From a virus, in the IMG/VR virus record IMGVR_UViG_3300047550_003635: a stretch of DNA of 64,000 bases; one strand, written 5' to 3'. The notes below the pieces were generated by a model, which saw only the letters and a program-made list of their open reading frames with translations, searched no databases and had not been told where the DNA came from. Shown piece by piece: positions 21,073 to 50,403 of the stretch; within the stretch, counting starts at the first letter, position 1; every line of letters starts with the position of its first letter. The position numbers and the translations under genes were made by a program.

Positions 21073-21101
21073 TTGACACCCTTTATTTTGTAGTATATAA
21101 T
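21073..21101 (+). promoter_or_regulatory. Sigma70 early promoter (gp47)
   Basis: Perfect TTGACA-17-TATAAT. Confidence 0.85.
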
Positions 21102-21107
21102 TATCTA

Positions 21108-22184
21108 ATGAAAATTTGTATATTAGGCGACACGCACTTTGGAATGCGTGGTGATTCTCTTGAATTTCACCAGTATTGTTCCAAATTTTACACGAACGTA
21201 TTTTTTCCGTATATATTGGAAAACAATATTGATACTGTTTTTCAATTGGGAGATTTGTTTGACCGCAGAAAATTCATAAATTTCCAGTCACTTTATTTGT
21301 GCCGTGAATATTTTTTTGATAAGTTGCGCGATAACAATATTAAATTCCATACGCTATTAGGCAATCATGATATTGCTTTTAAGAATACGTTGAAAGTAAA
21401 TTCAACCAGTTTATTGTTGCAGGATTATAAGAACATTATCATTCATAATTCATTTGGCACTTTAGAATTTGATGATGTTCCTATTGATATTATTCCTTGG
21501 ATTTGTTCTGAAAACGAAGAATCAATTCTTGCTTCTATAAATCAATATAGTTCACCTGCACAGATTTGTTTTGGTCATTTTGAACTTGATGGATTTGAAA
21601 TGGACCGTGGAAATATTTGTGTCGGTGGTATGAGTAAAAATATTCTAAAAAGATATGATGTAGTTCTGTCAGGTCATTTTCATCATAAATCAACGAATGA
21701 TAATATTCATTATGTTGGAACACCCAATGAAATGACATGGGCTGATTATAATGACCCTCGCGGATTTCATATCTTTGATACTGCAACAAGAGAATTAGAA
21801 TTCATAGAAAATCCATATAGAATGTTTCATAAACTGTTTTATGATGATGGAAAAACAGATTTTGAATATTGGAAAAAGTTTAATTATGGGCAATTCAAAG
21901 ATACTTATTTGAAAGTTATTGTAGTATCAAAACAAAATCCCTATTTGTTTGATAACATGCTGGATAATTTATATAAAGCCGGTGTAACAGATATCTCTAT
22001 TGTTGAAGATTATTCTGATATTAATGTTGATATTGATGATGATATGGTAAATCAGGCTGAAGATACTATAACTGTTCTTTCAAACTATATCGATAATCTT
22101 CCCCTAGATGTAAATGGTGAAAAATTAAAATCATTAATGCGCGAACTATATGTTGAAGCGTCAAATATGGAAAGAGTTGAATGA
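21108..22184 (+). CDS. gp47: Recombination endonuclease subunit (Mre11/SbcD-like)
   Basis: DTHFG, LGDLFD, GNHD, SGHFH. Confidence 0.95.
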   Translation: MKICILGDTHFGMRGDSLEFHQYCSKFYTNVFFPYILENNIDTVFQLGDLFDRRKFINFQSLYLCREYFFDKLRDNNIKFHTLLGNHDIAFKNTLKVNSTSLLLQDYKNIIIHNSFGTLEFDDVPIDIIPWICSENEESILASINQYSSPAQICFGHFELDGFEMDRGNICVGGMSKNILKRYDVVLSGHFHHKSTNDNIHYVGTPNEMTWADYNDPRGFHIFDTATRELEFIENPYRMFHKLFYDDGKTDFEYWKKFNYGQFKDTYLKVIVVSKQNPYLFDNMLDNLYKAGVTDISIVEDYSDINVDIDDDMVNQAEDTITVLSNYIDNLPLDVNGEKLKSLMRELYVEASNMERVE

Positions 22185-23893
22185 TTGTTTTTAGGACTAT
22201 ACGCTGGAAAAATCTATTAAGCACTGGTAATACATTTACAGAGATTAAATTAGATTCTGCTGCAAATACACTTGTTGTTGGTAAAAATGGTTCAGGTAAA
22301 AGCACGATGCTTGATGCATTATGTTTTGGATTATTTGGCAAAGCATTTAGAAATGTGAATAAACCAAATCTACTGAATTCAATAAACGATAAAGATTGCC
22401 TTGTTGAAATTGAATTTGACAGCGAAGGTAAATCATATAAGGTTGTTCGTGGTATAAAACCTAATCTGTTTGAAATTTACTGTAATAAAAAACTATTGAA
22501 TCAGGAAGCATCATCAAGAGATTATCAAGATTATTTTGAAAGATTCATTCTAAAGCTAAACTATAAATCTTTCACACAGATTGTTATTCTTGGTTCTGCT
22601 TCATTTACTCCTTTTATGCAATTATCTGCTGCCGATAGGAGAGCAATTATTGAAGATTTGTTGGATATACAAATATTTTCAGTAATGAATAATCTTGTTA
22701 AAGACAGACTTTCAAACAATAAAGATTCTATCAGTTCAAAGAAATATGAAATAGAACTTGCACAACAGAAATATGATATTCATGAAAATCATATAAAAGA
22801 AAAGCAGCAAAATGTTGATGAAAGGATAAAACAGTATGATAGTGAGATATCAATCAGCCTCAATCTTATACAAGAAACACATGCCAAAAATTCCGACATC
22901 ACTGAAAAAACAAACGAAAAATTACAATCCATCAGTGATAAGGATGCAATATCGTCTAAACTCAAGAAGATTACAAAACTTGAATCGCAAATTGAAAGCA
23001 ACTTATCCAAATATAGAAAAGATATCAGTTTTTTTCAACATAATGACAATTGTCCAACCTGTAAGCAAGAAATTGCCTTGGGGTTTAAAGAACAAGAATT
23101 GCATTCCTTATCAGAAAAGGTGGGAGAGTGTGAAAAAGGATTAAAAGAACTTGGTGAAAAAGTTTTAGATGAACAGAATAAACTGAATAATATTTCTGAA
23201 ATTCAAAAAGAAATACAAAAATTACAGATAGAATTAGCTACAAATCAAACATTGATTTCAGAAAATGAAAAATATATTGCCAAAGTTAAAAAGCAAATCG
23301 ATGAATTAAAAAATACCAACATTGCTTCCGAAAAAGATAAACAAGAATTAGTAAAAATGAAAGAGATTTTGACTAATCTTGAAAATGAATCCAAGAAATT
23401 GATAGAAGAAAAGCAATATTATGAAGTAGCAACAACTTTACTGAAAGATACTGGCATTAAAACCAAAATCATCAAACAGTATCTTCCAATTATCAATAAA
23501 CTTGTCAACAAATACTTGACTTCGCTCGATTTCTTTGTTAATATAAACTTAGATGAATCGTTTAAAGAGTCTATTAAATCACGACACAGGGATGAATTCT
23601 CTTATAACAATTTTTCTGAAGGTGAAAAACAGAGAATTGACATGGCTCTGATGTTGACATGGAGAGCAGTCGCAAAGTTAAAGAATTCTGCCAATACAAA
23701 TTTGTTGATATTGGATGAAATATTTGATGCATCATTAGACGCAACAGGAACAGAAGAATTGATGAAGATTCTTCAATTGCTTGAGGGTGTAAATTTGTTT
23801 GTTATATCACATCGCGGTGATATTCTACAAGATAAATTTGCGAATGTAATTAAATTTGAAAAAATTAGAAACTTTTCAAGGATAGTAAAATGA
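22181..23893 (+). CDS. gp46: Recombination ATPase subunit (Rad50/SbcC-like)
   Basis: GKNGSGKS, CPTC hook, FSEGE, LILDE, ISH. Confidence 0.95.
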   Translation: MIVFRTIRWKNLLSTGNTFTEIKLDSAANTLVVGKNGSGKSTMLDALCFGLFGKAFRNVNKPNLLNSINDKDCLVEIEFDSEGKSYKVVRGIKPNLFEIYCNKKLLNQEASSRDYQDYFERFILKLNYKSFTQIVILGSASFTPFMQLSAADRRAIIEDLLDIQIFSVMNNLVKDRLSNNKDSISSKKYEIELAQQKYDIHENHIKEKQQNVDERIKQYDSEISISLNLIQETHAKNSDITEKTNEKLQSISDKDAISSKLKKITKLESQIESNLSKYRKDISFFQHNDNCPTCKQEIALGFKEQELHSLSEKVGECEKGLKELGEKVLDEQNKLNNISEIQKEIQKLQIELATNQTLISENEKYIAKVKKQIDELKNTNIASEKDKQELVKMKEILTNLENESKKLIEEKQYYEVATTLLKDTGIKTKIIKQYLPIINKLVNKYLTSLDFFVNINLDESFKESIKSRHRDEFSYNNFSEGEKQRIDMALMLTWRAVAKLKNSANTNLLILDEIFDASLDATGTEELMKILQLLEGVNLFVISHRGDILQDKFANVIKFEKIRNFSRIVK

Positions 23894-24483
23894 GTGAAAT
23901 TTTAACAATTAATACAGAAGCGGGTATTAAAACAGAAGAACAATATAAACCATTGCCATTGTATGATGAAACATTACCTATGTTGGAATCTGAAATTCCA
24001 ATGTATAATCTTCGTTTGCCAAATCCACAGATGACCAAACTCGTCAGTGAAATGAAAATGACGATGAAACAATTTGGTGGGATTGGTCTTTCAGCAAATC
24101 AATGTGGTGTATATGAACGTGTTTTTGTTATTGGGACAGACCAGTTTCAGATTGCATGTATTAATCCAAAGATTATTGAATCATCTGATAACAAAATCAA
24201 AGCAGAAGAAGGTTGTCTTTCATATCCAGGTTTGTATTTAAAGATTGAACGCCCTGAATGGATTGTTGCAGAATTTACAGATGAAAATGGTGAAACGAAA
24301 CAGATGCGATTTGATGGTGTTACTGCAAGATGTTATCAGCACGAATTGGACCATATGAATGGTAAAAAGTTTGTTGATTATGCAGGACCAGTAGCACTCC
24401 ATATGGCAAGAAAGAAACAAAAGAAAATAGTCAAGAAAGTTTCGAGAAATAGTAAGAAAAATCTAGGAGCAATTTATGGCTGA
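23890..24483 (+). CDS. def: Peptide deformylase
   Basis: GIGLSANQ, EGCLS, QHELDH. Confidence 0.92.
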   Translation: MSEILTINTEAGIKTEEQYKPLPLYDETLPMLESEIPMYNLRLPNPQMTKLVSEMKMTMKQFGGIGLSANQCGVYERVFVIGTDQFQIACINPKIIESSDNKIKAEEGCLSYPGLYLKIERPEWIVAEFTDENGETKQMRFDGVTARCYQHELDHMNGKKFVDYAGPVALHMARKKQKKIVKKVSRNSKKNLGAIYG

Positions 24484-24775
24484 AAAAAATAAAGAAAAAA
24501 ATATGATTTTTGATTTTATGGATTTAAACGATGAAGAACGTGATTTATTAATTAATGATGATAATGATTGGGAAAATCATTGGATTTCAATGCCTGAATT
24601 TGTTCAGGAAGATAATCCACCATTTAAAAAAATATTTGTGAGTTTTAGAAGTGAGAGTGATTATAATGAATTTGCTAAATTAATTGGACAAAATTTATCT
24701 GAAAAAACAAAATCTATTTGGTATCCAGTTTTAGACCGCGAAGCTAATTCATTATTGCGTTGGATTGAAGAATGA
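24476..24775 (+). CDS. Hypothetical protein of a type I recall adjacent to TAGT-type glycosyltransferases
   Basis: W..MPEFVQE...F....D...FA.LIGQ.L..KTKSIWYP. Confidence 0.6.
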   Translation: MAEKNKEKNMIFDFMDLNDEERDLLINDDNDWENHWISMPEFVQEDNPPFKKIFVSFRSESDYNEFAKLIGQNLSEKTKSIWYPVLDREANSLLRWIEE

Positions 24776-25824
24776 TAGAACCAAAAATAATAATGCCTTT
24801 CTTATCACACCATCAAAATTATGGATTAATCAGTAATCAAATATTTGGGGGTATTGAACGATTTAAAAAACTTGTTTATGAACATATTCCAAATGTTTTA
24901 CCTGTAGAAATAACAAAAGAACAAAGAAAGAAAAGAATTGGTAAAAGCATATTTCATTTTGAATATTGGCAATATCAGCCTGATATTATTTTTGTTAATG
25001 ATGCGTCAAAAGTTTTTAGTTCTGGATTGATTGATTATAATGTTCCTGTTGTATGGGTTTGTCATGAACCTTTAGAGAGAACTATCCAAAATATTGAAAT
25101 GATGAAAAGATTCAATCCATTTATTGATAGAGGTGGACATTTATATTTCGTATCTCAAATTCAGCATGAATTTTTTGACAATATGAGTAAAAGAATACTT
25201 GGATATCCAATTAAAAATATAATGGGATATGTAAATCCATCATGTTGTTTAGGAACTGAACAGGTATATACAGGCAACAGAGAATATGATGCTGTAACTA
25301 TAGGAAGAACAATACGAAGTAAAGACCCTTTTTGGTTGCATAGAAAACTGGAAAATACTAATTTGAAATCCGCAGTAATTACGGGAAAAATAAATTTACT
25401 CAAAAATGATAAAGAACATGAATATTTTAATTTTAATTACAAATGGGTAGAACCGAGATACACTTTTAGAGGATTATCACATGAAGAAACATTATATGAA
25501 ATGTCCAAAGGTGGCGTATTTGTTTCTACATGGGCATCTGAAAGTTGGGGGATTACTGCTTTAGAAGCATTAAGTTATGGTTTACCTCTATTACTAATTA
25601 CATCATCAATGAATAAACATGCTAGTCAATATATAGCAGGAAATGAAAATCATTTTAGGCATATAAAAAAAGGAATAAAATCAGAAAATTTATTGGATAT
25701 AATTAAAGAAATGAATACTATAAGTTTAGATGATAGAATGGAAATCGCTAAAATAACGCAAGAAAATCATAGCTTACAAAATTTTAAGAATATGATGAAT
25801 TCAATTTTTAGAAAAGCATTATGA
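24772..25824 (+). CDS. GT-B (GT4-like) glycosyltransferase
   Basis: ESWGITALEALSYGLP (E-x7-E motif), IFGGIE. Confidence 0.75.
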   Translation: MIEPKIIMPFLSHHQNYGLISNQIFGGIERFKKLVYEHIPNVLPVEITKEQRKKRIGKSIFHFEYWQYQPDIIFVNDASKVFSSGLIDYNVPVVWVCHEPLERTIQNIEMMKRFNPFIDRGGHLYFVSQIQHEFFDNMSKRILGYPIKNIMGYVNPSCCLGTEQVYTGNREYDAVTIGRTIRSKDPFWLHRKLENTNLKSAVITGKINLLKNDKEHEYFNFNYKWVEPRYTFRGLSHEETLYEMSKGGVFVSTWASESWGITALEALSYGLPLLLITSSMNKHASQYIAGNENHFRHIKKGIKSENLLDIIKEMNTISLDDRMEIAKITQENHSLQNFKNMMNSIFRKAL

Positions 25825-26705
25825 CAAATCCAATATATCCAATTTATATTCCTTCTAAAGGTCGTTATGAATCAATGATTACTTCAAAATCGTTGACTCG
25901 TATGAAAGTTCCACATAATATTGTTGTAGAACCACAAGAGTTTGATGATTATAAAAAAGCCGTCAAAATTTTTAATTTGGAAAATTATGCAACAGTTTTA
26001 GAATTACCTTTTAGTAATTTGGGTTTAGGTTCATATCCAGCCAGAAATTGGGCATGGGACCATTCTAAATCAATAGGTGCAAAAAAACATTGGTGCATAG
26101 ATGACAACATTTCAGATTTTTATAGGTTAAATAAAAATTTTAGAATTCGCGTAGAATCTGGTATTATTTTTAAAATAGCTGAAGATTTTGTTGATAGATA
26201 TGATAATGTTCCTGTATCTGGATTCAACTATAGATTTTTTATTGCACCAAATACAAAATATCCCCCATATTATTTAAATACGAAAGTTTACTCAACCATT
26301 TTAATTCAGAATGATTGTCCATATCGTTGGAGATTAAAATATAATGAAGATGTTGATTTGTGTTTACAAGTTTTAAAAGCTGGGTATTGCACAATTCAAT
26401 TTAATGCGTTTCTTGCTGGTAAATGCGCGACACAGACAGTTGATGGTGGAAATACTGGAGAATTATATGGTAAAAAAGGAAATGTAAAAGACCCTAAAGG
26501 AACACTACAAAAATCACAAATGTTAGTTGATTATCATCCTGATGTCGCTAAAGTCGTTTGGAAATACAATAGAGTTCATCATTATGTTGATTATCGTCCG
26601 TTTAAAAAAAATAAATTAAAATATAAAGATGATTTTATAAAACCTAAAAATATTATTAATAATTATGGAATGAAATTAATAACAAATTTTAAAAATACTA
26701 TTTAA
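25821..26705 (+). CDS. TET-associated (TAGT)/GREB1-like GT-A glycosyltransferase
   Basis: [38 protein letters not shown]. Confidence 0.7.
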
Positions 26706-26726
26706 TTTATAGAGGAATATTTTATT

Positions 26727-27665
26727 ATGAAAAAAATATTAGTAACTGGTGGTTCGGGATTTTTAGGCAGCCATTTGTGTGAACGTTTATTAACAGAAGG
26801 ACATCATATTTTATGTGTGGACAATTATTTTACAGGTTCAAGGACAAATATAAGTCATTTGTTAAATTATAAAAATTTTGAAATTATGAGACATGACATT
26901 TGTTTTCCTTTATATGTCGAAGTTGATGAAATTTATAATTTGGCATGTCCCGCAAGTCCAATCCACTATCAGTTGGATCCAATTCAAACTATGAAAACTA
27001 GTATTTTAGGTGCATATAATTTATTAGGACTCGCTAAACGCACAAAAGCAAAAATTTTACAAACAAGCACTTCAGAAATTTATGGCAATCCTATAGAACA
27101 TCCTCAATCAGAAGAATATTGGGGTAATGTTAACCCTATAGGAATTCGTAGTTGTTATGATGAGGGAAAACGTGCTGCCGAAACATTATTTATGGATTAT
27201 AATCGTATGCACAAAGTTGATATAAGAATAGCGAGGATTTTTAATACATACGGTCCAAAGATGTCAAAAAATGATGGTCGCGTTATTAGTAATTTTATTA
27301 TACAAGCATTAAATAATGAAAATATTACATTATATGGAAACGGTAATCAAACAAGGTCTTTTTGTTATGTTGATGATATGATTACAGCACTTATAACTCT
27401 TATGAATACTAATATGCAATATGTTGGTCCTATTAATTTAGGTAATCCAGAAGAATTTACAATTTTAGAATTAGCTGAAAAAATCATCAAAATGACTAAT
27501 TCCAAAAGTCAAATACAACAAAAAGAATTACCTAAAGATGACCCACAACAACGAAAACCTAATATAGAAAAAGCCAATAAAATTTTAAACTGGAATCCAA
27601 AAATTGGATTAAACGAAGGTCTATTTAAAACAATAGAATATTTTAATAAAATCAACAACTTATAG
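26727..27665 (+). CDS. uxs: UDP-glucuronate decarboxylase (UDP-xylose synthase)
   Basis: [50 protein letters not shown]. Confidence 0.9.
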
Positions 27666-27669
27666 ACGC

Positions 27670-27698
27670 TTGACATTTATTCAACGGTTTGCTATAAT
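27670..27698 (+). promoter_or_regulatory. Sigma70 early promoter
   Basis: TTGACA-17-TATAAT with TGn extension. Confidence 0.85.
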
Positions 27699-27726: not shown

Positions 27727-30120
27727 ATGTTTACCGTTGAATCCAAATCGCAACTAGCCAAGCTGATGGCTACTGAAAATCTGATTATTCAGCACCAAAA
27801 ACTTCGCACAGCAAAATTTGACCCAGTTAATCGTATTTTGTATTTGCCCATTTGGCAAAACATGACTGGATTTGTTTATGACCTGCTTTGTGGTCATGAA
27901 GTCGGTCATGCACTTTATACTCCGCCACAAGGTTGGCATGATGCTGTTGTTGATAAATCTAAACCTAAATCATATAAACATTTTCTAAATGTTGTTGAGG
28001 ATGCTCGGATTGAAAAGAAAATCCAACGACGTTATCCTGGACTTCGGTCATGTTTTAAACAAGCATATGAAAAATTCTTTGATGAAGATTTTTTCGGTGT
28101 TGCTGGTCGCAATATTAACAATCTTCCTTTTATTGACCGTTTGAATCTTTTTACAAAAAGTCAATATACCAAAAATATTACGTTCAATGATGTTGAATTG
28201 GATTTTATCAGTGAAGTTAAAAATGCTGAATCATGGGAAAACGTTGTTGATATTACTGATAGAATTTTTCAGTATTCTAAAAATGAACAATATGAATTAG
28301 AACATCAAAACGATTTTTCTTTTTCGGATAATCAAACTTATGATGAATCTGGTGATGGTGACCCAGATGAATGTGATTTTGATGAAATTGAAGATGAAAC
28401 TGAAAATTCAAGTGGCAAATCTAAAAAAGTTTCAAAACAGTCACAAGAAAAATCGGATGATGGTGATGAATCAGAAGAATCTGAAACACAATCTGGTAAA
28501 TCCGACAAAGAATCTGATTCCGACAAATCTGAAGAAAAATCGGATGATAAGGAAAATGATAATAAATCAGATGATAAGAAAGAACATGATGATGAAAAAT
28601 CGAATAGCATCAATCGTGATAAAGAATCTAATGAATCAGACCGTGACCAATTTGTTCCGAATTGTCAAACTGATGAAACATATCGTCAAAAAGAAAATCT
28701 TTTGCTTGATGTAAAATCAAAAGATTATCATTATATTAATATTCCAAAACCTATTCTTGAAGATATTGTGACCCCGTGGAAACGTGTGCAAGAACAGATG
28801 ACCGAACATTGGAATAAAGTTTTTGATATTAAAAATTATGATACTCAAGCTAAAAGATATTATTATCCAAAAGTTAATCCCACTGAATTGGTAAACAGTT
28901 TTAAACTGAAGAACGAGAAATATATCACACTTTTGGCTAAAGAATTTGAAATGCGAAAAGCTGCAAAATCTTATGCTAAAAATAAAATCTCAACAACGGG
29001 TGATTTGAACATCAACAAACTCGCACAATACAAGGTTGATGATAATATCTTTCGGAAAATCATGACTGTTCCTAAAGGTAAAAAACATGGTCTAATATTG
29101 CTTCTGGATTATTCTGGTTCAATGAGTGATAAAATGGACGGCTCAATTGAACAGATTCTTGTTCTTGCGATGTTTTGTCGTAAAGTAAATATTCCTTTCC
29201 GTGTGTATGCTTTTGGTGATTCGGTAAAAGTATATTCTTTGGATAGAAATATTGTTAATAATCCGTTAGCAGCAAAAACATCCCGTCCTAATTGCAGTTG
29301 TTTCACTACAAATGCAGATGAATTGGCATTAAAAACTGTTCAATTGCGTGAATATTTGAACAACGAAATGACAAACTCTGAATTTACCAAAAGTGTTCGT
29401 AATATGATTTTGTTGAAACAATCTTTTGATAGAAATAGCTATGGTGTTAATCAATTAGAAAAACCTAATAGTGAAGAATTGACTAATACCCCATTGATTC
29501 AAGGTATTTTTGCAATGACTGAAGTTATGAAACAATTTAAAAAAGTAAATAATTTGGATTTTACCAGTTTGATTATTGTGCATGATGGTGATGCTGATGC
29601 AAATCCAAACTATTATGATGGACGTTATCATAATTCACAAACATATTTTAATGAAATCAAAGATAATGTAATTATTACTAATAAAAAGAGTAAATTCCAA
29701 TATCTTTTGAGGTCAGAAAAAACAAACAATAATCCATCATTGTTGACTGCTGCTTTGCGCTATTTCAGACATGAAACTAAATCTAAAATTTTTGGTTTCT
29801 TTATTCTTGAAAATCGTTCATATGCTATAAAAAATAGTCTGTTTAGACGTTATCTGGATAAAAATGGTAATTCTGTCGATTATGATGCTATTAAAGACAA
29901 AATAAAAGAACTTCGGTCAGAAAAATATTTGCAATCGAATATCGTCGGCTATGATGATTTCTATATGTTGTCGAATGACATTATTATTGATGATGAAGAA
30001 TTGGAAATTGCTGAAACAGCATCACAGAAAACAATCATCAAAGCGTTCATCAAATTTAATAAAAAACGCCAAGTAAATCGTGTTCTCGTCAACAAGTTTA
30101 TCCAAGGTATTGCTGCATAA
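27727..30120 (+). CDS. Metallopeptidase-like (HExxH) + vWA domain protein, CobT-like partner of CobS
   Basis: HEVGHAL, NVVEDARIE, acidic linker, MIDAS LDYSGSM, TPL, HDGD. Confidence 0.8.
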   Translation: MFTVESKSQLAKLMATENLIIQHQKLRTAKFDPVNRILYLPIWQNMTGFVYDLLCGHEVGHALYTPPQGWHDAVVDKSKPKSYKHFLNVVEDARIEKKIQRRYPGLRSCFKQAYEKFFDEDFFGVAGRNINNLPFIDRLNLFTKSQYTKNITFNDVELDFISEVKNAESWENVVDITDRIFQYSKNEQYELEHQNDFSFSDNQTYDESGDGDPDECDFDEIEDETENSSGKSKKVSKQSQEKSDDGDESEESETQSGKSDKESDSDKSEEKSDDKENDNKSDDKKEHDDEKSNSINRDKESNESDRDQFVPNCQTDETYRQKENLLLDVKSKDYHYINIPKPILEDIVTPWKRVQEQMTEHWNKVFDIKNYDTQAKRYYYPKVNPTELVNSFKLKNEKYITLLAKEFEMRKAAKSYAKNKISTTGDLNINKLAQYKVDDNIFRKIMTVPKGKKHGLILLLDYSGSMSDKMDGSIEQILVLAMFCRKVNIPFRVYAFGDSVKVYSLDRNIVNNPLAAKTSRPNCSCFTTNADELALKTVQLREYLNNEMTNSEFTKSVRNMILLKQSFDRNSYGVNQLEKPNSEELTNTPLIQGIFAMTEVMKQFKKVNNLDFTSLIIVHDGDADANPNYYDGRYHNSQTYFNEIKDNVIITNKKSKFQYLLRSEKTNNNPSLLTAALRYFRHETKSKIFGFFILENRSYAIKNSLFRRYLDKNGNSVDYDAIKDKIKELRSEKYLQSNIVGYDDFYMLSNDIIIDDEELEIAETASQKTIIKAFIKFNKKRQVNRVLVNKFIQGIAA

Positions 30121-31856: not shown

Positions 31857-32672
31857 ATGGAAATACAAGTCAAAGTTGAAGAATTGAGAAAGAATAAAGT
31901 TTTCGTTGCTACACCCATGTATGGTGGAATGGCCCATGGTCTTTATGTAAAATCATGTCTTGACCTTCAGGGAACAATGAGCAAATATGGTGTTGATACC
32001 AAGTTCTCATTTCTTTTCAATGAATCTTTAATTACTCGCGCAAGAAATTATCTTGTTGACGAGTTCCTACGCACAGATTACACACACTTACTTTTTATTG
32101 ATTCTGATATTCATTATAATCCACAAGATGTTGTTGCATTACTTGCCTTGGATAAAGATGTTATCGGTGGACCTTATCCAAAAAAATCTATTAATTGGAA
32201 TAATGTTGCGATGGCAGCGAGAAGTCATCCCAAACTTGAACCAAAAGAATTGGAAACATTGGTTGGTGAATATGTTTTCAATATCGTAAAGGGAACACAA
32301 TCATTTCAAGTTACCGAACCTCTTGAAGTTATGGAAATTGGTACGGGATATATGTTGATTAAACGACATGTATTTGAAAAGATGGCAGAATCATATCCAA
32401 ATATCAAATATAAACCTGACCATGTTGGGCAACAGCATTTTGATGGGTCACGTTATATTCATGCATATTTTGATACTGTTATTGATACCAAAGATTCAAT
32501 GACTGGTGGTGGTTCAGAACGTTATTTGTCTGAAGATTATATGTTCTGTCAGATGTGGCGCAAGATTGGTGGAAAAATCTTTTTGTGTCCATGGATGAAA
32601 ACACAACATATCGGAACATATGCATTTACTGGTAATATGCCAGCAGTTGCAAACTATACAGGTAAGCTATGA
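31857..32672 (+). CDS. GT-A fold glycosyltransferase-like protein
   Basis: VATPMYGG, LITRARN, FIDSDI (DxD), GTGYMLI, SEDYMFC. Confidence 0.75.
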   Translation: MEIQVKVEELRKNKVFVATPMYGGMAHGLYVKSCLDLQGTMSKYGVDTKFSFLFNESLITRARNYLVDEFLRTDYTHLLFIDSDIHYNPQDVVALLALDKDVIGGPYPKKSINWNNVAMAARSHPKLEPKELETLVGEYVFNIVKGTQSFQVTEPLEVMEIGTGYMLIKRHVFEKMAESYPNIKYKPDHVGQQHFDGSRYIHAYFDTVIDTKDSMTGGGSERYLSEDYMFCQMWRKIGGKIFLCPWMKTQHIGTYAFTGNMPAVANYTGKL

Positions 32673-33280
32673 TTATTGGTCTCGTTGGTTTTATCGGCTC
32701 CGGCAAAGGAACTGTTGGTGATATCCTTGAACAAAAAGGATTCAACAAAGATTCTTTTGCCAAGCCCTTAAAAGATGCAGTATCAATTATCTTTGGATGG
32801 CCCAGAGAATTACTTGAAGGTGATACAGAAGTTTCCAGAAAATGGCGTGAACAAGTAGATTCTTTTTGGACTGAGAAATTTCAAAAAGAATTTTCGCCTA
32901 GAATGGCTTTACAATTAATGGGAACAGAAGCTGGTCGTGATGTGTTTGATAAAGATATTTGGGTTATTTCTTTATTGAATCGCGCAAATGGTAAGAATGT
33001 TGTTGTTACTGATGTAAGATTTCAAAACGAAATTAAATACATTCAACAAAATAACGGTATTATTATTCGCGTTAAACGTGGTCCTGAACCTGAATGGTAT
33101 GAAATGTTGAAAACCATTACCGATTTTCGTTTGAGAAAAACGACCATGTCATTTTGGAATATACATCAATCAGAATGGGATTGGGTAGGTTGTAATTTTG
33201 ATTATGAAATTGATAATAACGGTAGCCTTCAAGATTTGAGTAATAAAGTAGAAGAAGTATTGCAACAGATTCAAAAGTAG
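32669..33280 (+). CDS. gp1: dNMP kinase
   Basis: GFIGSGKGT, SFAKPLKD, PRMALQLMGTE, DVRFQNE. Confidence 0.9.
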   Translation: MIIGLVGFIGSGKGTVGDILEQKGFNKDSFAKPLKDAVSIIFGWPRELLEGDTEVSRKWREQVDSFWTEKFQKEFSPRMALQLMGTEAGRDVFDKDIWVISLLNRANGKNVVVTDVRFQNEIKYIQQNNGIIIRVKRGPEPEWYEMLKTITDFRLRKTTMSFWNIHQSEWDWVGCNFDYEIDNNGSLQDLSNKVEEVLQQIQK

Positions 33281-37390: not shown

Positions 37391-37563
37391 AAAAAGTATA
37401 TACATCAGAAGTTTTGGAAATACTTGAAAATGGTGATGCTGTCATAGGTTTACCAGAAGATTTATTGAAGGAAGTTTGCTGGTATACAGGTGACCTTTTA
37501 GAATTTACCGAAAAAGATGGCTCTGTTTTTATTCATAATTTAACAAAAGAGAAGGATAGATAA
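37387..37563 (+). CDS. AbrB/MazE-like small protein (58 aa, not in ORF track)
   Basis: NGDAVIGLPEDLLKEVCWYTGDLLEF pattern; overlaps both neighbours. Confidence 0.65.
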   Translation: MKKVYTSEVLEILENGDAVIGLPEDLLKEVCWYTGDLLEFTEKDGSVFIHNLTKEKDR

Positions 37564-38039
37564 TGCTAGTATTACCTGATGAAATGGTTGGAAAGCCAAT
37601 TGGATTTACATGTTCAACATTTGATTTACTTCATGCAGGACATATTCTTATGTTAGCTGAAGCAAAATCTATTTGTGATTATCTTATTGTTGCACTTCAA
37701 AGCGACCCGACAATTGATAGACCTAAAACGAAGAATAGACCCGTTCAATCAATTGTTGAAAGACATGTTCAGCTTGAGGCAGTAAAATTTGTCGATGAAA
37801 TTATTGTATATAATACCGAAAAAGATTTGGAAGATTTGTTAATGTTTCTTCCAATTACTATTAGAATTATCGGTGAAGAATATCGTGATAAAGATTTTAC
37901 AGGTAAAACAATATGTGAAGAACGCGGTATAAAGATTTTTTATAACTCGCGTAAGCACCGCTTCAGTTCTACCGAATTGCGTAAGAGAACTTACCAATCA
38001 GAATTGGAAAAGAATGCTGTTGCTATTGAAATTGGTTGA
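37563..38039 (+). CDS. Cytidylyltransferase (TagD / glycerol-3-phosphate cytidylyltransferase-like)
   Basis: FDLLHAGH, SIVER, VDEI, FSSTELR. Confidence 0.85.
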   Translation: MLVLPDEMVGKPIGFTCSTFDLLHAGHILMLAEAKSICDYLIVALQSDPTIDRPKTKNRPVQSIVERHVQLEAVKFVDEIIVYNTEKDLEDLLMFLPITIRIIGEEYRDKDFTGKTICEERGIKIFYNSRKHRFSSTELRKRTYQSELEKNAVAIEIG

Positions 38040-43592: not shown

Positions 43593-43621
43593 TATAAATA
43601 CTCTAAAAACAGGAGTATTTA
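43593..43621 (+). promoter_or_regulatory. Late promoter TATAAATA forming the 5' arm of an RBS-sequestering hairpin
   Basis: TAAATACTC(43595-603) pairs with GAGTATTTA(43613-621) over the AGGAG SD. Confidence 0.8.
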
Positions 43622-44432: not shown

Positions 44433-44873
44433 ATGATAAACTTTAAAACATTTCTAATAGAATCAGAAGAAGATGATGGTAAACTCAAGCATATCACACA
44501 TGCTGAGGACCATCCTTTAATTGATGGTCATAAGGGATTTGAACATGCTTATGGTGCATTGATGAAAACACATCAGCACATGGTTGAAAAAAAGAAAAAC
44601 AGTAATCTAACGATGAAATATGATGGTTCACCTTCTGTAGTATTTGGTCATCATCCAAAAACTGGTAAATTTTTTGTCGCATCAAAATCTGCTTTCAACA
44701 AGAATCCCAAGATAAATTATTCAGATAAAGATATTGACGCTAATCATGGTCATTCTCCGGGACTAGCACATAAACTAAAAGCTGCGCTTAAACATTTTCC
44801 TAAAGTTACACCAAAGAAAGGTGTATATCAGGGAGATATGATGTATACCCACGAGGATTTAAAACATGAGTAA
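44433..44873 (+). CDS. N-terminal half of a ligase-like (KxDG) protein with capsid-targeting-like N-terminus
   Basis: MINFKTFLIE; TMKYDGSP, FFVASKS, YQGD. Confidence 0.65.
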   Translation: MINFKTFLIESEEDDGKLKHITHAEDHPLIDGHKGFEHAYGALMKTHQHMVEKKKNSNLTMKYDGSPSVVFGHHPKTGKFFVASKSAFNKNPKINYSDKDIDANHGHSPGLAHKLKAALKHFPKVTPKKGVYQGDMMYTHEDLKHE

Positions 44874-45615
44874 AGTATCTTTCACTCCAAATACAATCAC
44901 TTATACTGCTCATGGCAAACAAGCAGATAAAATAAAGAAATCAAAAGTTGGTGTTGTCGTTCATCAACAATATCATGGTGACGATTTATCAACAATGAAA
45001 GCATCACCACATACAGACCATGCTACTGCATTCAAAGAGCATCCAGATGTTTATCATCATTCTGCTGAACATGATACAAGCAAAGTAGATTATTCACATC
45101 ATGCACAGCAAGATTTTCAAAAACATATGGCAGCAGCAAAACATATCCATGATACATATGGGCATAAGATGTATGCTGCTACAGCAAAACATCAAGGTGA
45201 TGGTGGACATCTAACGACATATATCAATCATACTGTCAGAACAGGTGAAGCACCAACATCTGAAGGTCTAAAAAAACACGTTAAAGAAAAATATGGTAAA
45301 TTGATTGATAAAGCAAAATCAGAAAAAGGTAAAAAAGCAAAAGAAGCTGAATCAGAAGAACATGTCAATCATATTGAGAAACATAAAGAACATTACGACC
45401 ATTTACTAACAATGCATCATCATCTTCAGCAAGCAAAAGATACACTTGTAAAACATCTTGAACATCATGAAGGTGGTTATGAACACCATATTGATGATAC
45501 AAAATCAAAGCCCGAAGGTTTTGTCGTAAGTCATGAAGATAAACCAACTAAACTTGTAAATCGTAAAGAATTTGCACGTGCTAATCTTCTGAAAGTAAAA
45601 GCATGGAAAAAGTAA
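44866..45615 (+). CDS. C-terminal half of the same ligase-like protein; His-rich
   Basis: FTPNTITY, KPEGFVV (motif IV-like), TKLVNR (motif V-like). Confidence 0.65.
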   Translation: MSKVSFTPNTITYTAHGKQADKIKKSKVGVVVHQQYHGDDLSTMKASPHTDHATAFKEHPDVYHHSAEHDTSKVDYSHHAQQDFQKHMAAAKHIHDTYGHKMYAATAKHQGDGGHLTTYINHTVRTGEAPTSEGLKKHVKEKYGKLIDKAKSEKGKKAKEAESEEHVNHIEKHKEHYDHLLTMHHHLQQAKDTLVKHLEHHEGGYEHHIDDTKSKPEGFVVSHEDKPTKLVNRKEFARANLLKVKAWKK

Positions 45616-46253
45616 ATGTTTTAGATTTTCTTATCGAAGATATGGACCGTAAAGACCCAAAGTCTAAAACGCTCCATGCCTTCGATATGGACGATACTCT
45701 ATTTCATTACAAAAAGAAGAATGAAGCAAAAATTCACGTTGTCAATAAGTCTGGTAAAAGAGTGCAATCATTGACAAACCGCGAATATAATACGCACAAA
45801 TTACCTGCTGGTCACAAATACGATTTTAGTGATTTCAGGTCAACAAAAGTATTTAAAAAATCTGCACAACCAATACACAAAATGGTTCGCAAGATGAAAG
45901 CTATTCATCACAATAATAAGAACGTTGAAATTTTGACAGCACGTTCTAATATGGATAGCAAAAAGAATTTCACAAAAGCGATGCGTGGACATGGAATTGA
46001 TATCAATAAAATACATTTTCGTCGTGCAGGAGAAACTGGAGAAGAAACACCTGCAAAAGCAAAGCATAAAGTTATTGATGGATTAATTCGTAAACATGGA
46101 TACACAAAAGTCCATCTGTATGACGATTCACATGCAAATCTTGAACATTTCAAAAAGTTAAAAGAAAAACATCCAAACGTGGAGTTTCATGCACATCACG
46201 TCCATCATGATGAAAAAACAGGTAAAGTAACAGTAACGACTACGAAAGCATAA
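45603..46253 (+). CDS. HAD-superfamily phosphatase (polynucleotide 3'-phosphatase-like)
   Basis: FDMDDTLF, ILTARS, K, LYDDSHAN; N-terminal LDFLIE. Confidence 0.75.
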   Translation: MEKVNVLDFLIEDMDRKDPKSKTLHAFDMDDTLFHYKKKNEAKIHVVNKSGKRVQSLTNREYNTHKLPAGHKYDFSDFRSTKVFKKSAQPIHKMVRKMKAIHHNNKNVEILTARSNMDSKKNFTKAMRGHGIDINKIHFRRAGETGEETPAKAKHKVIDGLIRKHGYTKVHLYDDSHANLEHFKKLKEKHPNVEFHAHHVHHDEKTGKVTVTTTKA

Positions 46254-46254
46254 A

Positions 46255-46440
46255 ATGTTAAAATTAAAAGAACATATTATAAAAAATATAAGTGAAGAAA
46301 AAAAAGTTCCTCATCCCGATATTCTTCCACCATCAGGTGCAGGTAATGATGCTTCAGATGAATTGGTTCATTCATATACCAGAGATACACCAGGTCAAAA
46401 AGTAAGAAAGATAAAGTCGTTTAAAGAACATACTAAATAA
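46255..46440 (+). CDS. Small hypothetical protein, probable internal head protein
   Basis: ISEE site; YTRDTPGQ; C-terminal IKSFKEH. Confidence 0.55.
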   Translation: MLKLKEHIIKNISEEKKVPHPDILPPSGAGNDASDELVHSYTRDTPGQKVRKIKSFKEHTK

Positions 46441-46458
46441 TTTTTTTGTGGAGTTGTT

Positions 46459-47310
46459 ATGGATATAGTGATTGGTTGCATTACAGGATATGATTTTGAT
46501 AAAATAAAACCTTGGGTAAATTCGCTTGACCGTTCCGGTTTCCAAGGTACCAAAGCGATGATGTGTTATAATGTTTCTTTTGACACCGTTGAAGAATTGG
46601 TCAAAAGAGACTATTCTGTTCTCACATTTAACAAAAACGAAAATCTAAAAAGATTTGAATATAAAGAAAATTTCTCAATCGTCGTTGAGAGATTTTTTCA
46701 TCTATGGTATTTTCTACGACAGCTTAAAGGTGAATATCGATATATCGTTACAACAGATGTTAAAGATGTTGTGTTCCAAAGTAATCCAATTGACTGGCTT
46801 GAAAATAATATTGGTAATAAACAAATCAACGTCGGTTGTGAATCTATTACATATGAAAATGAAGAATGGGGTAAAAATAATCTTCAAAAAGCATATGGAA
46901 CAGTATTATATGAACACAATAAAAACAATTTAATTTATAACGCAGGAACAATTTCTGGTAAATTTGATACAATGATTGATTTCTTTTTGAACATCTATAT
47001 GCTATGTCAGGGAACAAATCATTATATCGAAGGTGGTGGTGGACCTGACCAAGCAGCATTGAATATTCTTTTGAATATGAAACCATATAAAGATATTACT
47101 AATTTTGCTATGTCGGAGAGTGGTTATGCAGCGCAGTTAGGAACAACAGGACCTCAGGTTAGAAATACAGTAAAACATAAATTAGTTGAAAATTGTCCAG
47201 TTATGATAAATGATACTGTCTGCACTTCTACTGAAAAACCATTTGCAATTGTCCACCAATATGATAGAATAACAGAATGGAAAGAAATAATTGAGAGGAA
47301 ATATGGATAA
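46459..47310 (+). CDS. GT-A-like nucleotide-sugar transferase
   Basis: TTDVKDVVFQSNP, NAGTISG, DQAALN, VHQYDR; ACTAAATA upstream at 46432. Confidence 0.7.
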   Translation: MDIVIGCITGYDFDKIKPWVNSLDRSGFQGTKAMMCYNVSFDTVEELVKRDYSVLTFNKNENLKRFEYKENFSIVVERFFHLWYFLRQLKGEYRYIVTTDVKDVVFQSNPIDWLENNIGNKQINVGCESITYENEEWGKNNLQKAYGTVLYEHNKNNLIYNAGTISGKFDTMIDFFLNIYMLCQGTNHYIEGGGGPDQAALNILLNMKPYKDITNFAMSESGYAAQLGTTGPQVRNTVKHKLVENCPVMINDTVCTSTEKPFAIVHQYDRITEWKEIIERKYG

Positions 47311-47944
47311 AATTATTATTAATACAGAACAAGAAACCTTTACATCACAACAATATAATGATGTAGAGGTAAAAAATAATATGAATGGTAATGAGTGGAT
47401 TGATTATCAACTGTCACAGGGTGAATATATTTCAGGAAAAGGTTTAGTCAATGTTTTAAAAAAACATTTTTCGACAAATATTATTGGTTGTGAGATAGGC
47501 GTTTGTTTGGGTGTTACAAGTGAGTATTTATTAAGTGAAATAAAAAACTTAACGAAATTATATTGTGTTGATAATTATCCTACATACACTGATTGGACTG
47601 GTGTTATTATGAATGATGTTAAACAAAATGCCATGAGAGAACATGCATTCAACAGATTAAAAAAATTTAATGAGAGGGTTGAATTTGTTTATGAATCAAG
47701 TGTAGATTTTTCTAAAAAAAATCCAGAAAAAACTTTAGATTTTATTTTTATTGATGGTGACCATAGTTATGATGGCGCTTTCAGAGACTTTCAAAATTAT
47801 TTTCCATTAATAAAAGATGGTGGTATATTTGCAGGACATGACTTTACATTAAAAGATGTAAATATTGCTCTGAGAAATTTTCTCGGTAAAAGAATAAATG
47901 AAGTCATACCTTTAGAAAATAATGCTTGGTATATAATAAAATGA
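47303..47944 (+). CDS. Class I SAM methyltransferase (Methyltransf_24-like)
   Basis: EIGVCLG, DFIFIDGDHSY, GGIFAGHDF; ATG at 47303. Confidence 0.8.
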   Translation: MDKIIINTEQETFTSQQYNDVEVKNNMNGNEWIDYQLSQGEYISGKGLVNVLKKHFSTNIIGCEIGVCLGVTSEYLLSEIKNLTKLYCVDNYPTYTDWTGVIMNDVKQNAMREHAFNRLKKFNERVEFVYESSVDFSKKNPEKTLDFIFIDGDHSYDGAFRDFQNYFPLIKDGGIFAGHDFTLKDVNIALRNFLGKRINEVIPLENNAWYIIK

Positions 47945-48672
47945 GTAATGTAATTTTTTGTCCTGTTGGAATTCCTTTAAATTATCATGATGCATATGAT
48001 AAAGATAATCACTGGAGAATGAAAAAAGATGGTCGAAATTATGAAACCATTTTGTGTCGATATAATGATTATGTTCCAGATTCAAACACATATGATTATA
48101 TTATAGAAAAATCTGGATATAAATGGAATCTTGTTAAATGTTTTTTGGAACTAATTGATTATACTAAGTATGCATATATTGGGTTTTGGGATGACGATTT
48201 GGTCACAGATATACAAAGCGTAAATAGAGCATTAGAAATTGCGACAGAAAAGAATTTAAAACTGTTTCAACTATCAACAATTTCTGGTTCAGAATCGACA
48301 CATAGAATACTTCATCAAAAACCAGAATTAAAATATGCAGTAACAAATTTTAATGAAGGTATGGGTCAATTTATACATTCATCATTAATGCCTATAATTT
48401 TAGAATTTTTTAAAATGCATGATGTAAAGAGTGGATGGGGATTCGACTTAATTTTGTCAGCAATCACAAAAGAGAAGTGTGGAGTGATACATGAAGTTTC
48501 AATGTATCATCCAGGAAAACCAAGCTATTATGATAAGAGTGATGCATTTGAAGAAATGTATCATATATTAAATGATGTATATCCAAAATTCATGAAAGAA
48601 TATTATAATGAAGATGTTGGACCATACAATCAAAATCAAACAGAATATGAATTGACATTTAGGGGTATATAA
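47941..48672 (+). CDS. DUF707-like putative glycosyltransferase
   Basis: KW, YIGFWDDDL, LFQ, SGWGFD. Confidence 0.6.
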   Translation: MSNVIFCPVGIPLNYHDAYDKDNHWRMKKDGRNYETILCRYNDYVPDSNTYDYIIEKSGYKWNLVKCFLELIDYTKYAYIGFWDDDLVTDIQSVNRALEIATEKNLKLFQLSTISGSESTHRILHQKPELKYAVTNFNEGMGQFIHSSLMPIILEFFKMHDVKSGWGFDLILSAITKEKCGVIHEVSMYHPGKPSYYDKSDAFEEMYHILNDVYPKFMKEYYNEDVGPYNQNQTEYELTFRGI

Positions 48673-49739
48673 TGGAAGAAAAAGTTCAAGGAAGAAGTTA
48701 CACAAGCAATCATGTCAAATTATTAAAACATCTTGACAGATTAAAAATAATTCAAGATGGTGGCAGACCTAAACCTGTTATGTTTCATATGTCACCATGT
48801 AATCCATGTAATCTCACATGTTCATTTTGCTGCTTTGCTAATCGTAGCATGAAAGAAATGTTGACTGTCGAACAGATGAAAAAAGCCATAGATTCATTTG
48901 CTGAATTGGGTGTAAAAGGTATGGAGTTTACTGGTGGTGGTGAACCAACGCTCCATCCAAAACTTGATGAAGTAATTGAATATGCTCATAACAAAGGTTT
49001 TAAAATAGGTATCTGCACTAACGGTTCAAAACTCAGAAAAGTTAAAAATTGGCATATGATATCATGGGTTCGTCTTGGTATGTATTCTTGGGACGAAAAG
49101 AAACCATATGAATATCATCTTGATGTGTTTGATGGATTAGATATTGAAATTTCAGCAGCATATGTTTGGGATGGTGCAACAGAAACTTCAACAAATCCAA
49201 ATATTACTGGTAAATGGAATGACCCAAAAGCTAAAAAATTAGCATCAAATGAATACAAAGAAGAAAATTTTCTTAAAATGCTTTCGTGGGTAGAAGAAAA
49301 GAAAATACCTTGCCGTATAGCATTCAATGCAATTAAAGATACAAAGATAGTTCAGCAAGACATTGAGAGTATTAAAAGATTAATTGCAAAACATGAATCG
49401 GAAAATGGTCCATTAAAATATGCTTTTTTGTCAGATTTTAATTTCAAAGGCGTTCGTCGTAATACAAATTGTTATATGCACATGGTAAAACCTTGCGTGT
49501 TTACAGACGGTAACGTGTATGTTTGTCCTTCAGCAGAATTAGCACCAGAAAATAATTATCATGTAAATGACCAATTTAAATTGTGTGATATTGATGGAAT
49601 ATTAGATTTCTATAATTCGCAAGTTGGTGGTCCTAATGTAACACGCAGAACACATGATTGTAGTTTTTGTAAATATGCATATCAAAATGAATTAATTGAT
49701 GATGTTTTAACTGAAACAAAACACAATGAGTTTGCATAA
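48672..49739 (+). CDS. Radical SAM enzyme with SPASM/twitch-like C-terminus
   Basis: CNLTCSFC, TGGGEPTLH, TNG, DGNVYVC, CSFC. Confidence 0.88.
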   Translation: MEEKVQGRSYTSNHVKLLKHLDRLKIIQDGGRPKPVMFHMSPCNPCNLTCSFCCFANRSMKEMLTVEQMKKAIDSFAELGVKGMEFTGGGEPTLHPKLDEVIEYAHNKGFKIGICTNGSKLRKVKNWHMISWVRLGMYSWDEKKPYEYHLDVFDGLDIEISAAYVWDGATETSTNPNITGKWNDPKAKKLASNEYKEENFLKMLSWVEEKKIPCRIAFNAIKDTKIVQQDIESIKRLIAKHESENGPLKYAFLSDFNFKGVRRNTNCYMHMVKPCVFTDGNVYVCPSAELAPENNYHVNDQFKLCDIDGILDFYNSQVGGPNVTRRTHDCSFCKYAYQNELIDDVLTETKHNEFA

Positions 49740-50353
49740 TGAATAATATATTTGATGAAAAATATTTTGAAGATGGTGTAAGAAATCGTGTCAGCGCATA
49801 TGAAAATTATCGTTGGATGCCTGAAAGAACGATTCGTGAAGCATCATCTATTATTAATAATATAAAATTTGATACTGTTTTGGATTATGGATGCGCTAAA
49901 GGATTCATGGTTTATGCTATGCGACTTTTAGGTAAAGAAGCACATGGCGTTGACATTTCCGAATATGCTGTCAATAATTGTCATCCCAAAGTCCAAGGTT
50001 ATCTTTCGGTAATTAATACACCAGAAGATATAAAAGGTGGATGGGATTTGATTATAGCAAAAGATGTTTTAGAACATATACCAAAAGAAAATATAGCTGA
50101 TACTCTATCTTCATTTAGAAGGCGTTGTAAAAATATTTTCATAGCAGTTCCTTTGGGTGATGGAACAAGATATAGAATTCGTGAATATGAAATGGATGTA
50201 ACACATATCATAAGAGAACCAGAAGAATGGTGGTTAACTACAATTGTTCAAGCTGGTTTTAAAATCAAATATTTCGACTATCAATTTGGACATCTAAAAG
50301 AAAACTGGACAACAAATCATCCTCATGGAAATGCTTTTATAGTAGCTGAATAA
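49739..50353 (+). CDS. Class I SAM methyltransferase
   Basis: VLDYGCAKG, GVDISEYA, DVLEHI. Confidence 0.85.
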   Translation: MNNIFDEKYFEDGVRNRVSAYENYRWMPERTIREASSIINNIKFDTVLDYGCAKGFMVYAMRLLGKEAHGVDISEYAVNNCHPKVQGYLSVINTPEDIKGGWDLIIAKDVLEHIPKENIADTLSSFRRRCKNIFIAVPLGDGTRYRIREYEMDVTHIIREPEEWWLTTIVQAGFKIKYFDYQFGHLKENWTTNHPHGNAFIVAE

Positions 50354-50403
50354 AGAATAAAAAATACTAAATACATCATTAACTGCTATAGAGGCGGAAA
50401 AAG

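Follow-up and report, generated by a model that had tools for sequence, protein, structure and literature searches.

An early cassette with a split TAGT glycosyltransferase in a freshwater T4-like phage, possibly acting on phage DNA

Here we describe a group of four genes found in a stretch of 64,000 nucleotides (hereafter the window) of the IMG/VR virus record IMGVR_UViG_3300047550_003635. It corresponds, in reverse complement, to bases 790-64789 of this 133 kb record, which is 76% complete by CheckV and belongs to an uncultured freshwater T4-like phage whose nearest gp46 relatives are Methylophilales phage Melnitz and cyanomyoviruses, at about 49% identity. The genes encode a small protein of 99 amino acids (orf99), a glycosyltransferase (GT) of the GT-B type, a second GT of the TAGT family, with a GT-A fold, and a UDP-glucuronate decarboxylase (UXS). 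They lie among the following features:

21073..21101, plus strand: sigma-70-type promoter (TTGACA, 17 nt, TATAAT), 12 of 12 positions matching the consensus, 7 nt before the gp47 start
21108..24483, plus strand: gp47 (SbcD-like), gp46 (SbcC-like) and peptide deformylase (phrog_100, phrog_77 and PF01327)
24476..24775, plus strand: orf99, 99 amino acids, pI 4.5, predicted TAGT accessory module from its position and fusions; no library match
24772..25824, plus strand: GT4-like GT-B, 350 amino acids, pI 9.0 (weak match to Glycos_transf_1, homologues with PF00534)
25821..26705, plus strand: TAGT GT-A, 294 amino acids, pI 9.4 (PF20691, E 6e-43; phrog_842, E 1.5e-43)
26727..27665, plus strand: UXS, 312 amino acids (403 bits to human UXS1)
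27670..27698, plus strand: sigma-70-type promoter preceding the CobT-like and CobS genes, 12 of 12 positions matching the consensus
27727-30120: CobT-like gene with a VWA domain, 797 amino acids

The gene order in the window runs 55, 47, 46, peptide deformylase, orf99, GT-B, TAGT, UXS, CobT-like and CobS, followed by a small helix-turn-helix gene, an Anp1-like GT-A, a dNMP kinase, 45, 44, 62 and regA, and this block is syntenic with T4 55, a-gt, 47, 46, 45, 44, 62 and regA. An earlier note on this DNA had described four closely spaced genes here, and all four open reading frames are indeed present on the plus strand. Its naming of a TAGT-like GT, a GT-B and a UDP-xylose synthase also holds, the last of these being a full UDP-glucuronate decarboxylase that matches human UXS1 over its whole length; what had to be corrected is the order, which is helper, GT-B, TAGT, UXS, and the first reading frame, which is better read as an accessory module of the TAGT enzyme than as an independent function. 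That T4 keeps its alpha-glucosyltransferase gene next to gene 47, as the same note stated, is true of the T4 block compared.

Overlapping start and stop codons of the ATGA type run from gp47 through TAGT, and UXS begins 21 nt past TAGT with its own AGAGGA ribosome-binding site. Between the promoters at 21073-21101 and 27670-27698 there is no further sigma-70 site matching at 12 of 12 positions, so that the placement of the cassette downstream of an early gp47/46 promoter, already claimed in the earlier note, stands: a perfect consensus site precedes gp47 and no other occurs until after UXS. Because of these flanking promoters and overlapping codons, the four cassette genes are taken as the tail of one early transcript, and the predicted early unit is gp47-gp46-peptide deformylase-orf99-GT-B-TAGT-UXS, with UXS last. 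The same four-gene arrangement exists on contigs from four other samples and is therefore no assembly chimera. Moreover, the GC content at third codon positions is 0.15-0.17 in the four genes, below that of their flanks (0.22-0.27). As a separate observation, the promoters at 21073, 27670, 30135 and 31407 are all intergenic and match the Escherichia coli sigma-70 consensus at 12 or 11 of 12 positions with 17-nt spacers; such perfect E. coli-type promoters are unusual for a phage of 30% GC with a freshwater host.

The TAGT protein scores 147.6 bits against PF20691 (cut-off 27.5) and covers 204 of the 205 model positions. Across 20 sequences, its residues R75, D94-D95-N96 and N175-E176-D177 do not vary, and they fit the R...DDD...EDY/F motifs that are shared by validated phage DNA GT-A enzymes (bioRxiv 10.1101/2023.12.21.572611). 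The GT-A fold is indicated by an AlphaFold2 model of a fused TAGT relative, whose Foldseek matches are GT-A enzymes; the top ones for the GT-A domain, namely Mimivirus R699, COLGALT1, GnT-I and TarP, are generic GT-A matches only.

Next to this enzyme stands a partner, orf99, that has no match in Pfam, PHROG or NCBIfam. It is found directly upstream of TAGT in 22 of the 24 IMG/VR loci recovered with the TAGT protein, and the pair recurs in most of the 80 further loci kept from a profile search that returned at least 595 further IMG/VR stretches. A profile of the orf99 module collects 3265 cluster representatives. The module is also found fused to TAGT, either once (L016, L095, Aeromonas phage Aeh1 and Tenacibaculum phage PTm1) or twice in tandem, in proteins of 470-519 amino acids, and fused behind a ParB_N domain (L020, L021 and P0126); in an Atlas cluster of orf99-type proteins, ParB_N is carried by 82% of the 60 members. 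The AlphaFold2 model of orf99 alone shows no compact fold (pTM 0.38), and in that of a natural orf99-TAGT fusion (pTM 0.77) each orf99 repeat is a confident beta-alpha-beta unit. Judged from this distribution, orf99 accompanies the enzymes of a very large TAGT subfamily as their accessory module, with no predicted function apart from them, and we infer that it serves as a docking or substrate-engagement module of TAGT.

The idea that orf99 could instead be the glycosylation acceptor, through its TKS motif, is unlikely, given that the serine is not conserved in the fused forms, and it is further disfavoured by the proteins in which one or two copies of the module are joined to TAGT itself. A search for longer orf99 fusions in a set of 5.8 billion proteins returned a single 960-bp JGI contig (L031), whose protein P0001 opens with 78 orf99 residues and continues directly as a fragment resembling GDP-mannose-4,6-dehydratase; a chimeric assembly or a recombination event probably accounts for this junction. 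In a viral contig of 115 kb, three tandem genes of the radical-SAM/SPASM type (419-430 amino acids) lie directly upstream of the orf99-TAGT pair (L086:3645-7496).

The second transferase of the window matches Glycos_transf_1 weakly, with 22 bits (cut-off 26.4; E 1e-4), and the sequence ESWGITALEA, a candidate for the C-terminal E-x7-E region of GT4-like enzymes, is conserved. Of its 55 homologues, many among those listed come with a precomputed match to PF00534. The gene occupies a variable position. Indeed, in the T4-like lineage the order 46, peptide deformylase, orf99, slot, TAGT, slot, CobT, CobS is conserved, and the slot holds a second, divergent TAGT in 14 loci of the relatives, a class-I S-adenosylmethionine (SAM) methyltransferase in 12, an FkbM methyltransferase in six, a 354-residue protein without assigned function in another six, and a GT-B in about 11, the window included.

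In a quick tree from which the GT-B clades were drawn, a second clade is found in cytosine-hypermodification clusters in four of the 12 sampled contexts, on independent contigs (L278, L280, L282 and L284). The order there is gp43, PRA-PH (dCTPase-like), Tmk-like, ThyA homologue, dCMP deaminase, UGD (within the cluster of L282), DNA-methyltransferase-like, GT-B, a 372-residue protein (phrog_14998), C5-methyltransferase and gp45. Annotated dCMP hydroxymethylases share 55-57% identity with this ThyA homologue, in which the cytosine-type change N177D is seen. Furthermore, one locus (L036) unites the gp42-coupled GT-B clade with orf99-TAGT. These four aquatic clusters may themselves represent a glucuronate-type modification of 5-hydroxymethylcytosine (hmC). 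In the closest GT-B relative (L287:1392-2499), a CTP_transf_like gene and a PfkB kinase gene, a split HldE-like pair as in heptose activation, stand just upstream of orf99-GT-B-TAGT; another CTP_transf_like gene is located at 37563-38039 of the window.

The last gene of the cassette is, by its sequence, predicted without ambiguity to be a true UDP-xylose synthase. It aligns over residues 2-308 with the human UDP-glucuronate decarboxylase structures 4gll and 2b69 at 403 bits, the next family reaching 140 bits, is about 60% identical to human UXS1, and keeps the NAD-binding GxxGxxG motif and the catalytic S/T...YxxxK triad of the human enzyme, with CYDEGKR and RIFNTYGP among the aligned sequences; its scores fall below the cut-offs of the ArnA and UDP-4-keto-pentose synthase models. 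Since the phage has no match to UGD (PF03721), the UDP-glucuronate must come from the host.

Taken together, we tentatively propose, at somewhat less than even confidence, that these genes constitute an early, modular glycosylation cassette made of a split TAGT (orf99 plus GT-A), a GT-B placed in the slot, and UXS, which would act on phage DNA. The basic GT-A and the GT-B would work in sequence, building a mono- to disaccharide on replicating phage DNA; orf99 would dock on TAGT and aid substrate engagement, being carried by a ParB_N domain in some phages; and UXS, in what is the less certain step, would supply one donor by turning host UDP-glucuronate into UDP-xylose. The resulting glycan would protect phage DNA from host nucleases.

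That the cassette acts on DNA, leaving aside the nature of the sugar, we regard as slightly favoured. The presence of another clade of the GT-B family in gp42-type clusters, together with the literature, points to DNA as the target, and four further features support it: the cassette belongs to one early sigma-70 unit with gp47/46; it sits in the gap between 46 and 45 in all T4-like relatives; in small phages it is located between the recombination and terminase genes, at times with N6/N4 DNA methylases as neighbours; and both transferases are basic (pI 9.4 and 9.0). The connection of TAGT-type GTs with phage DNA glycosylation, mentioned in the earlier note, has been experimentally demonstrated (bioRxiv 10.1101/2023.12.21.572611; PMC13216743). 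In particular, the T2/T6 TAGT adds a second glucose on glucosyl-hmC DNA (PMC13216743, PMC13390438, PMC2993671), and metagenomic phage GT-A and GT-B enzymes glycosylate 5hmC DNA, in sequential GT pairs or in strict dependence on a partner sugar epimerase, with hexuronic acid, heptose and Kdo adducts described on phage DNA (bioRxiv 10.1101/2023.12.21.572611). In addition, orf99 is fused to ParB_N in some phages, and activation by ParB homologues has been described for a phage DNA dioxygenase (PMC13229309).

Several results weigh against this proposal, and the most important of them concern the acceptor. The earlier note had proposed searching the rest of the genome for a hydroxymethylase, a TET/JBP enzyme or a C5-methyltransferase, and none appears: a ThyA homologue (PF00303), TET/JBP (PF12851) and a C5-methylase (PF00145) are without match in the 133 kb record, and PF00303 and PF12851 likewise matched nothing in seven relatives with a completeness of 97-100% (G017 and phages of 33-37 kb including G005, G007, G012, G013 and G033), nor was a C5-methylase (PF00145) present in the three relatives checked for it, G017, G033 and G005. 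Around 103 TAGT loci, the flanks of 8-10 kb, about 1.2 Mb in total, contain no gp42-like, C5-methyltransferase or PRA-PH gene. Aeh1 and phage 65, which carry the fused form, are devoid of genes 42 and 56 (PMC2993671); the Aeh1 enzyme has been listed as modifying an "unknown base" (PMC8056088). To these must be added that T6 TAGT does not detect this subfamily by tblastn at 1e-5, that the window GT-B belongs to a clade other than that of the gp42-coupled GT-Bs (about 35% identity), and that it could not be assigned as a homologue of T4 alpha-gt (PF11440, GT72), for which hhalign of a 30-sequence profile gave a probability of 3% and an E value of 0.014. The peptide deformylase and CobT/CobS genes in the same string also indicate that adjacency here is no guarantee of shared function. 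Finally, the slot of relatives can hold FkbM or class-I methyltransferases, and some loci adjoin sulfotransferase and GT25 genes, a context that resembles protein or lipid glycan pathways.

As for the completeness of the search, the phage uses ThyX, whose gene is cut by the contig end, and comparison with G017, a complete relative of 149.6 kb with terminal repeats in which orf99-X-TAGT and ThyX are both present, suggests that the record lacks only a few kb, at most about 15 kb; an assembly of the same genotype with 145.7 kb also exists. PF12851 is reported to miss about 17% of phage 5mYOX contigs (PMC13229309). The 797-residue neighbour of the cassette, entertained as a "peptidase" that might be a U32-type pyrimidine hydroxylase, is ruled out in this role because the protein is CobT-like with a VWA domain, and Peptidase_U32 genes are absent from the five genomes searched. 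A P4H-like 2-oxoglutarate-Fe(II) oxygenase gene (PF13640, E 3e-13) is found about 11 kb before the window start, in the tail-fibre region of the same genome (G000:C1:75410-75688), and has a counterpart in G017.

Because acceptor enzymes are absent from the TAGT genomes and loci, the gp42 route and the TAGT subfamily coupled to the helper look like alternatives, either of which the GT-B family would be able to join. The acceptor would then be made by an unrecognised enzyme, or the sugar would go onto something other than a hydroxylated pyrimidine. One form of the latter, which we judge improbable, is that the orf99:TAGT complex glycosylates DNA without prior hydroxymethylation or hydroxylation, at a canonical base or another position of the DNA and guided by the helper or its ParB_N-fused form, with the GT-B and UXS extending the product here to a xylose glycan.

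The same absence leads to the possibility that the target is not DNA at all. On this account, which we consider less probable but which is the main rival, the cassette glycosylates a host or phage protein, for early takeover or self-protection, or another cellular molecule, and the slot tailors a protein or lipid glycan. It would explain why no gene making a DNA acceptor was found in the seven near-complete genomes with orf99 and TAGT, and it has a precedent in GREB1, a eukaryotic TAGT-like enzyme that O-GlcNAcylates the protein ER-alpha (PMC7968844). It also accommodates the FkbM and class-I SAM methyltransferases in the slot, the sulfotransferase and two GT25 genes adjoining L069, the best Foldseek matches of the GT-A, which are protein- or teichoic-acid-directed enzymes (matches that are generic only), and a second glycan-type cluster at 44433-52818 together with the P4H-like oxygenase of the fibre region. 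Nevertheless, the cassette belongs to the early gp47/46 unit, unlike virion proteins, whose expression is late; it was never seen in structural modules among the loci examined; the pair is present in 33-37 kb phages that lack other glycan genes; and DNA is also indicated by the ParB_N fusions, by neighbouring DNA methylases and by the gp42-type surroundings of the GT-B family.

A TATAAATA late-promoter motif at 43593 precedes the second cluster, which may be a late, virion-directed pathway. Encoded in it are DUF6267, a radical SAM enzyme, two methyltransferases, a GT (phrog_1579) and a cytidylyltransferase fusion of 804 amino acids. At 31857-33280 of the window, directly before gp45, an Anp1-like GT-A (phrog_1574, weak PF03452) is translationally coupled to a dNMP kinase of the T4 gp1 type; this Anp1-like gene occurs in TAGT-type and gp42-type relatives alike, at 47-49% identity, and is therefore a core gene.

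Returning to the proposal of a DNA-directed cassette, its less certain part is the contribution of UXS. Viral UXS relatives are 70-75% identical to the window enzyme (the bacterial copies found at most 70%) and amount to at least 185 stretches; in the 80 loci examined among them (L118-L197), TAGT, orf99 and GT-B are absent within 8 kb in every case. Conversely, a true UXS is found at none of the 103 other TAGT loci, and UXS stands beside TAGT only in the genotype of the window, the closest GT-B/TAGT relatives (L001, L002, L041 and L287) having no UXS. These observations suit a rival explanation whose probability we place just short of even, namely that UXS is an independent auxiliary metabolic gene in a hypervariable island, remodelling the host nucleotide-sugar pool by draining UDP-glucuronate and making UDP-xylose, while the two transferases use ordinary host donors, on a DNA or a non-DNA target. 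UDP-xylose inhibits UDP-glucose dehydrogenase. The transcript already mixes unrelated functions, such as the peptide deformylase, and UXS has been counted as a viral auxiliary metabolic gene in virome surveys (PMC11183165).

Against such independence stand the position of UXS as the last cistron of the cassette transcript, 21 nt after TAGT and with the same low third-position GC, and the fact that UDP-xylose requires a xylosyltransferase, for which these two enzymes are the nearest candidates. Uronate-pathway genes stand beside these cassettes three separate times, as UXS in the window, UGD in L282, and UGD with a short-chain dehydrogenase/reductase (SDR) in L072, and both partner-dependent DNA GTs and hexuronate-modified cytosine are documented. 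Whether UXS feeds the cassette we regard as evenly balanced. Combining this estimate with that for a DNA target makes xylose on DNA possible but rather unlikely. The earlier suggestion that two GTs and a UDP-xylose source would give a xylose-containing base modification is accordingly retained for the cassette and its early position, and has found neither an acceptor gene nor a recurrent link between TAGT and UXS.

Two observations on related sugar enzymes are added here. Viral UXS genes recur beside a UvdE endonuclease, PTPS (QueD-like), ClpP and CTP_transf_like, in large phage contigs of up to 350 kb and with no glycosyltransferase in the vicinity. The phage of the window has, in its early region, a second NAD-dependent sugar epimerase/dehydratase of 312 amino acids (G000, reverse complement, 21084-22022), lying some 47.3 to 46.3 kb before the window start and 25% identical to the SDR beside UGD in L072.

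The comparison with known systems helps to define what is particular to this locus. With the T2/T6 beta-glucosyl-HMC-alpha-glucosyltransferase it shares the PF20691 family, the GT-A fold and a DxD-type motif, as well as the pairing with a GT-B and the early position near 46/47, the T2/T6 enzyme being the second in a two-step glycosylation. It differs in a sequence too divergent for tblastn at 1e-5, in the conserved orf99 module, undescribed in the TAGT literature examined, and in a phage genome without alpha-gt, beta-gt, gene 42 and gene 56. The metagenomic DNA-glycan clusters (bioRxiv 10.1101/2023.12.21.572611; Cell Rep 2024;43:114631) likewise combine sequential GT-A and GT-B enzymes with GTs requiring an SDR sugar-nucleotide enzyme that is encoded nearby, and have gp45, DNA polymerase, ParB-like, terminase and methyltransferase genes as neighbours; as in them, the GTs of the window share an operon with an adjacent nucleotide-sugar enzyme, and this operon is part of the DNA replication module. 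Those clusters were chosen, however, for a C5-methyltransferase plus a 5mYOX or a ThyS homologue making 5hmC, none of which was found here, and the paper mentions no xylose or other pentose.

A pentose on DNA does exist in the arabinosyl-5-hydroxycytosine clusters of RB69 and DLP3 (PMC13326640), which resemble the window in their T4-like genomes and their phage-encoded NDP-pentose supply and have several GT-Bs in series. Unlike the window, they make the acceptor, 5hodCMP, by a ThyA homologue (D169N), have no TAGT, and derive the arabinofuranose donor from ribulose-5-phosphate and not from UDP-glucuronate. Human UXS1 and the bacterial UDP-glucuronate decarboxylases have the same Rossmann, STSE and YxxxK motifs as the phage UXS, whereas the phage copy is one of a viral clade whose other members stand alone as auxiliary genes. 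The ParB-dependent phage thymine dioxygenases (PMC13229309) offer a parallel for a DNA-modifying enzyme relying on a small partner with a ParB N-terminal domain, as orf99 is sometimes fused to ParB_N, the differences being that the orf99 of the window has no ParB_N and that its enzyme is a GT. GREB1 (PMC7968844), in its turn, has a related GT-A catalytic domain, in a eukaryotic multidomain context and with a protein acceptor.

Among 753 GT-encoding phage genomes, 288 have "solitary" TAGT homologues without defined function (PMC13216743), and the window belongs to this group. To the description of solitary TAGTs, the present analysis adds a conserved helper module, which together with the enzyme frames a hypervariable slot of sugar-tailoring genes, complete carrier genomes without any of the known acceptor-making enzymes looked for, and an inserted GT-B family that links the group to true hmC clusters. 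Should a protein prove to be the target, the cassette would represent a new kind of early host-takeover modification. If it is DNA, a new acceptor chemistry would be involved and xylose would be new as a DNA sugar, which would matter both for phage defence and for the enzymatic labelling of DNA.

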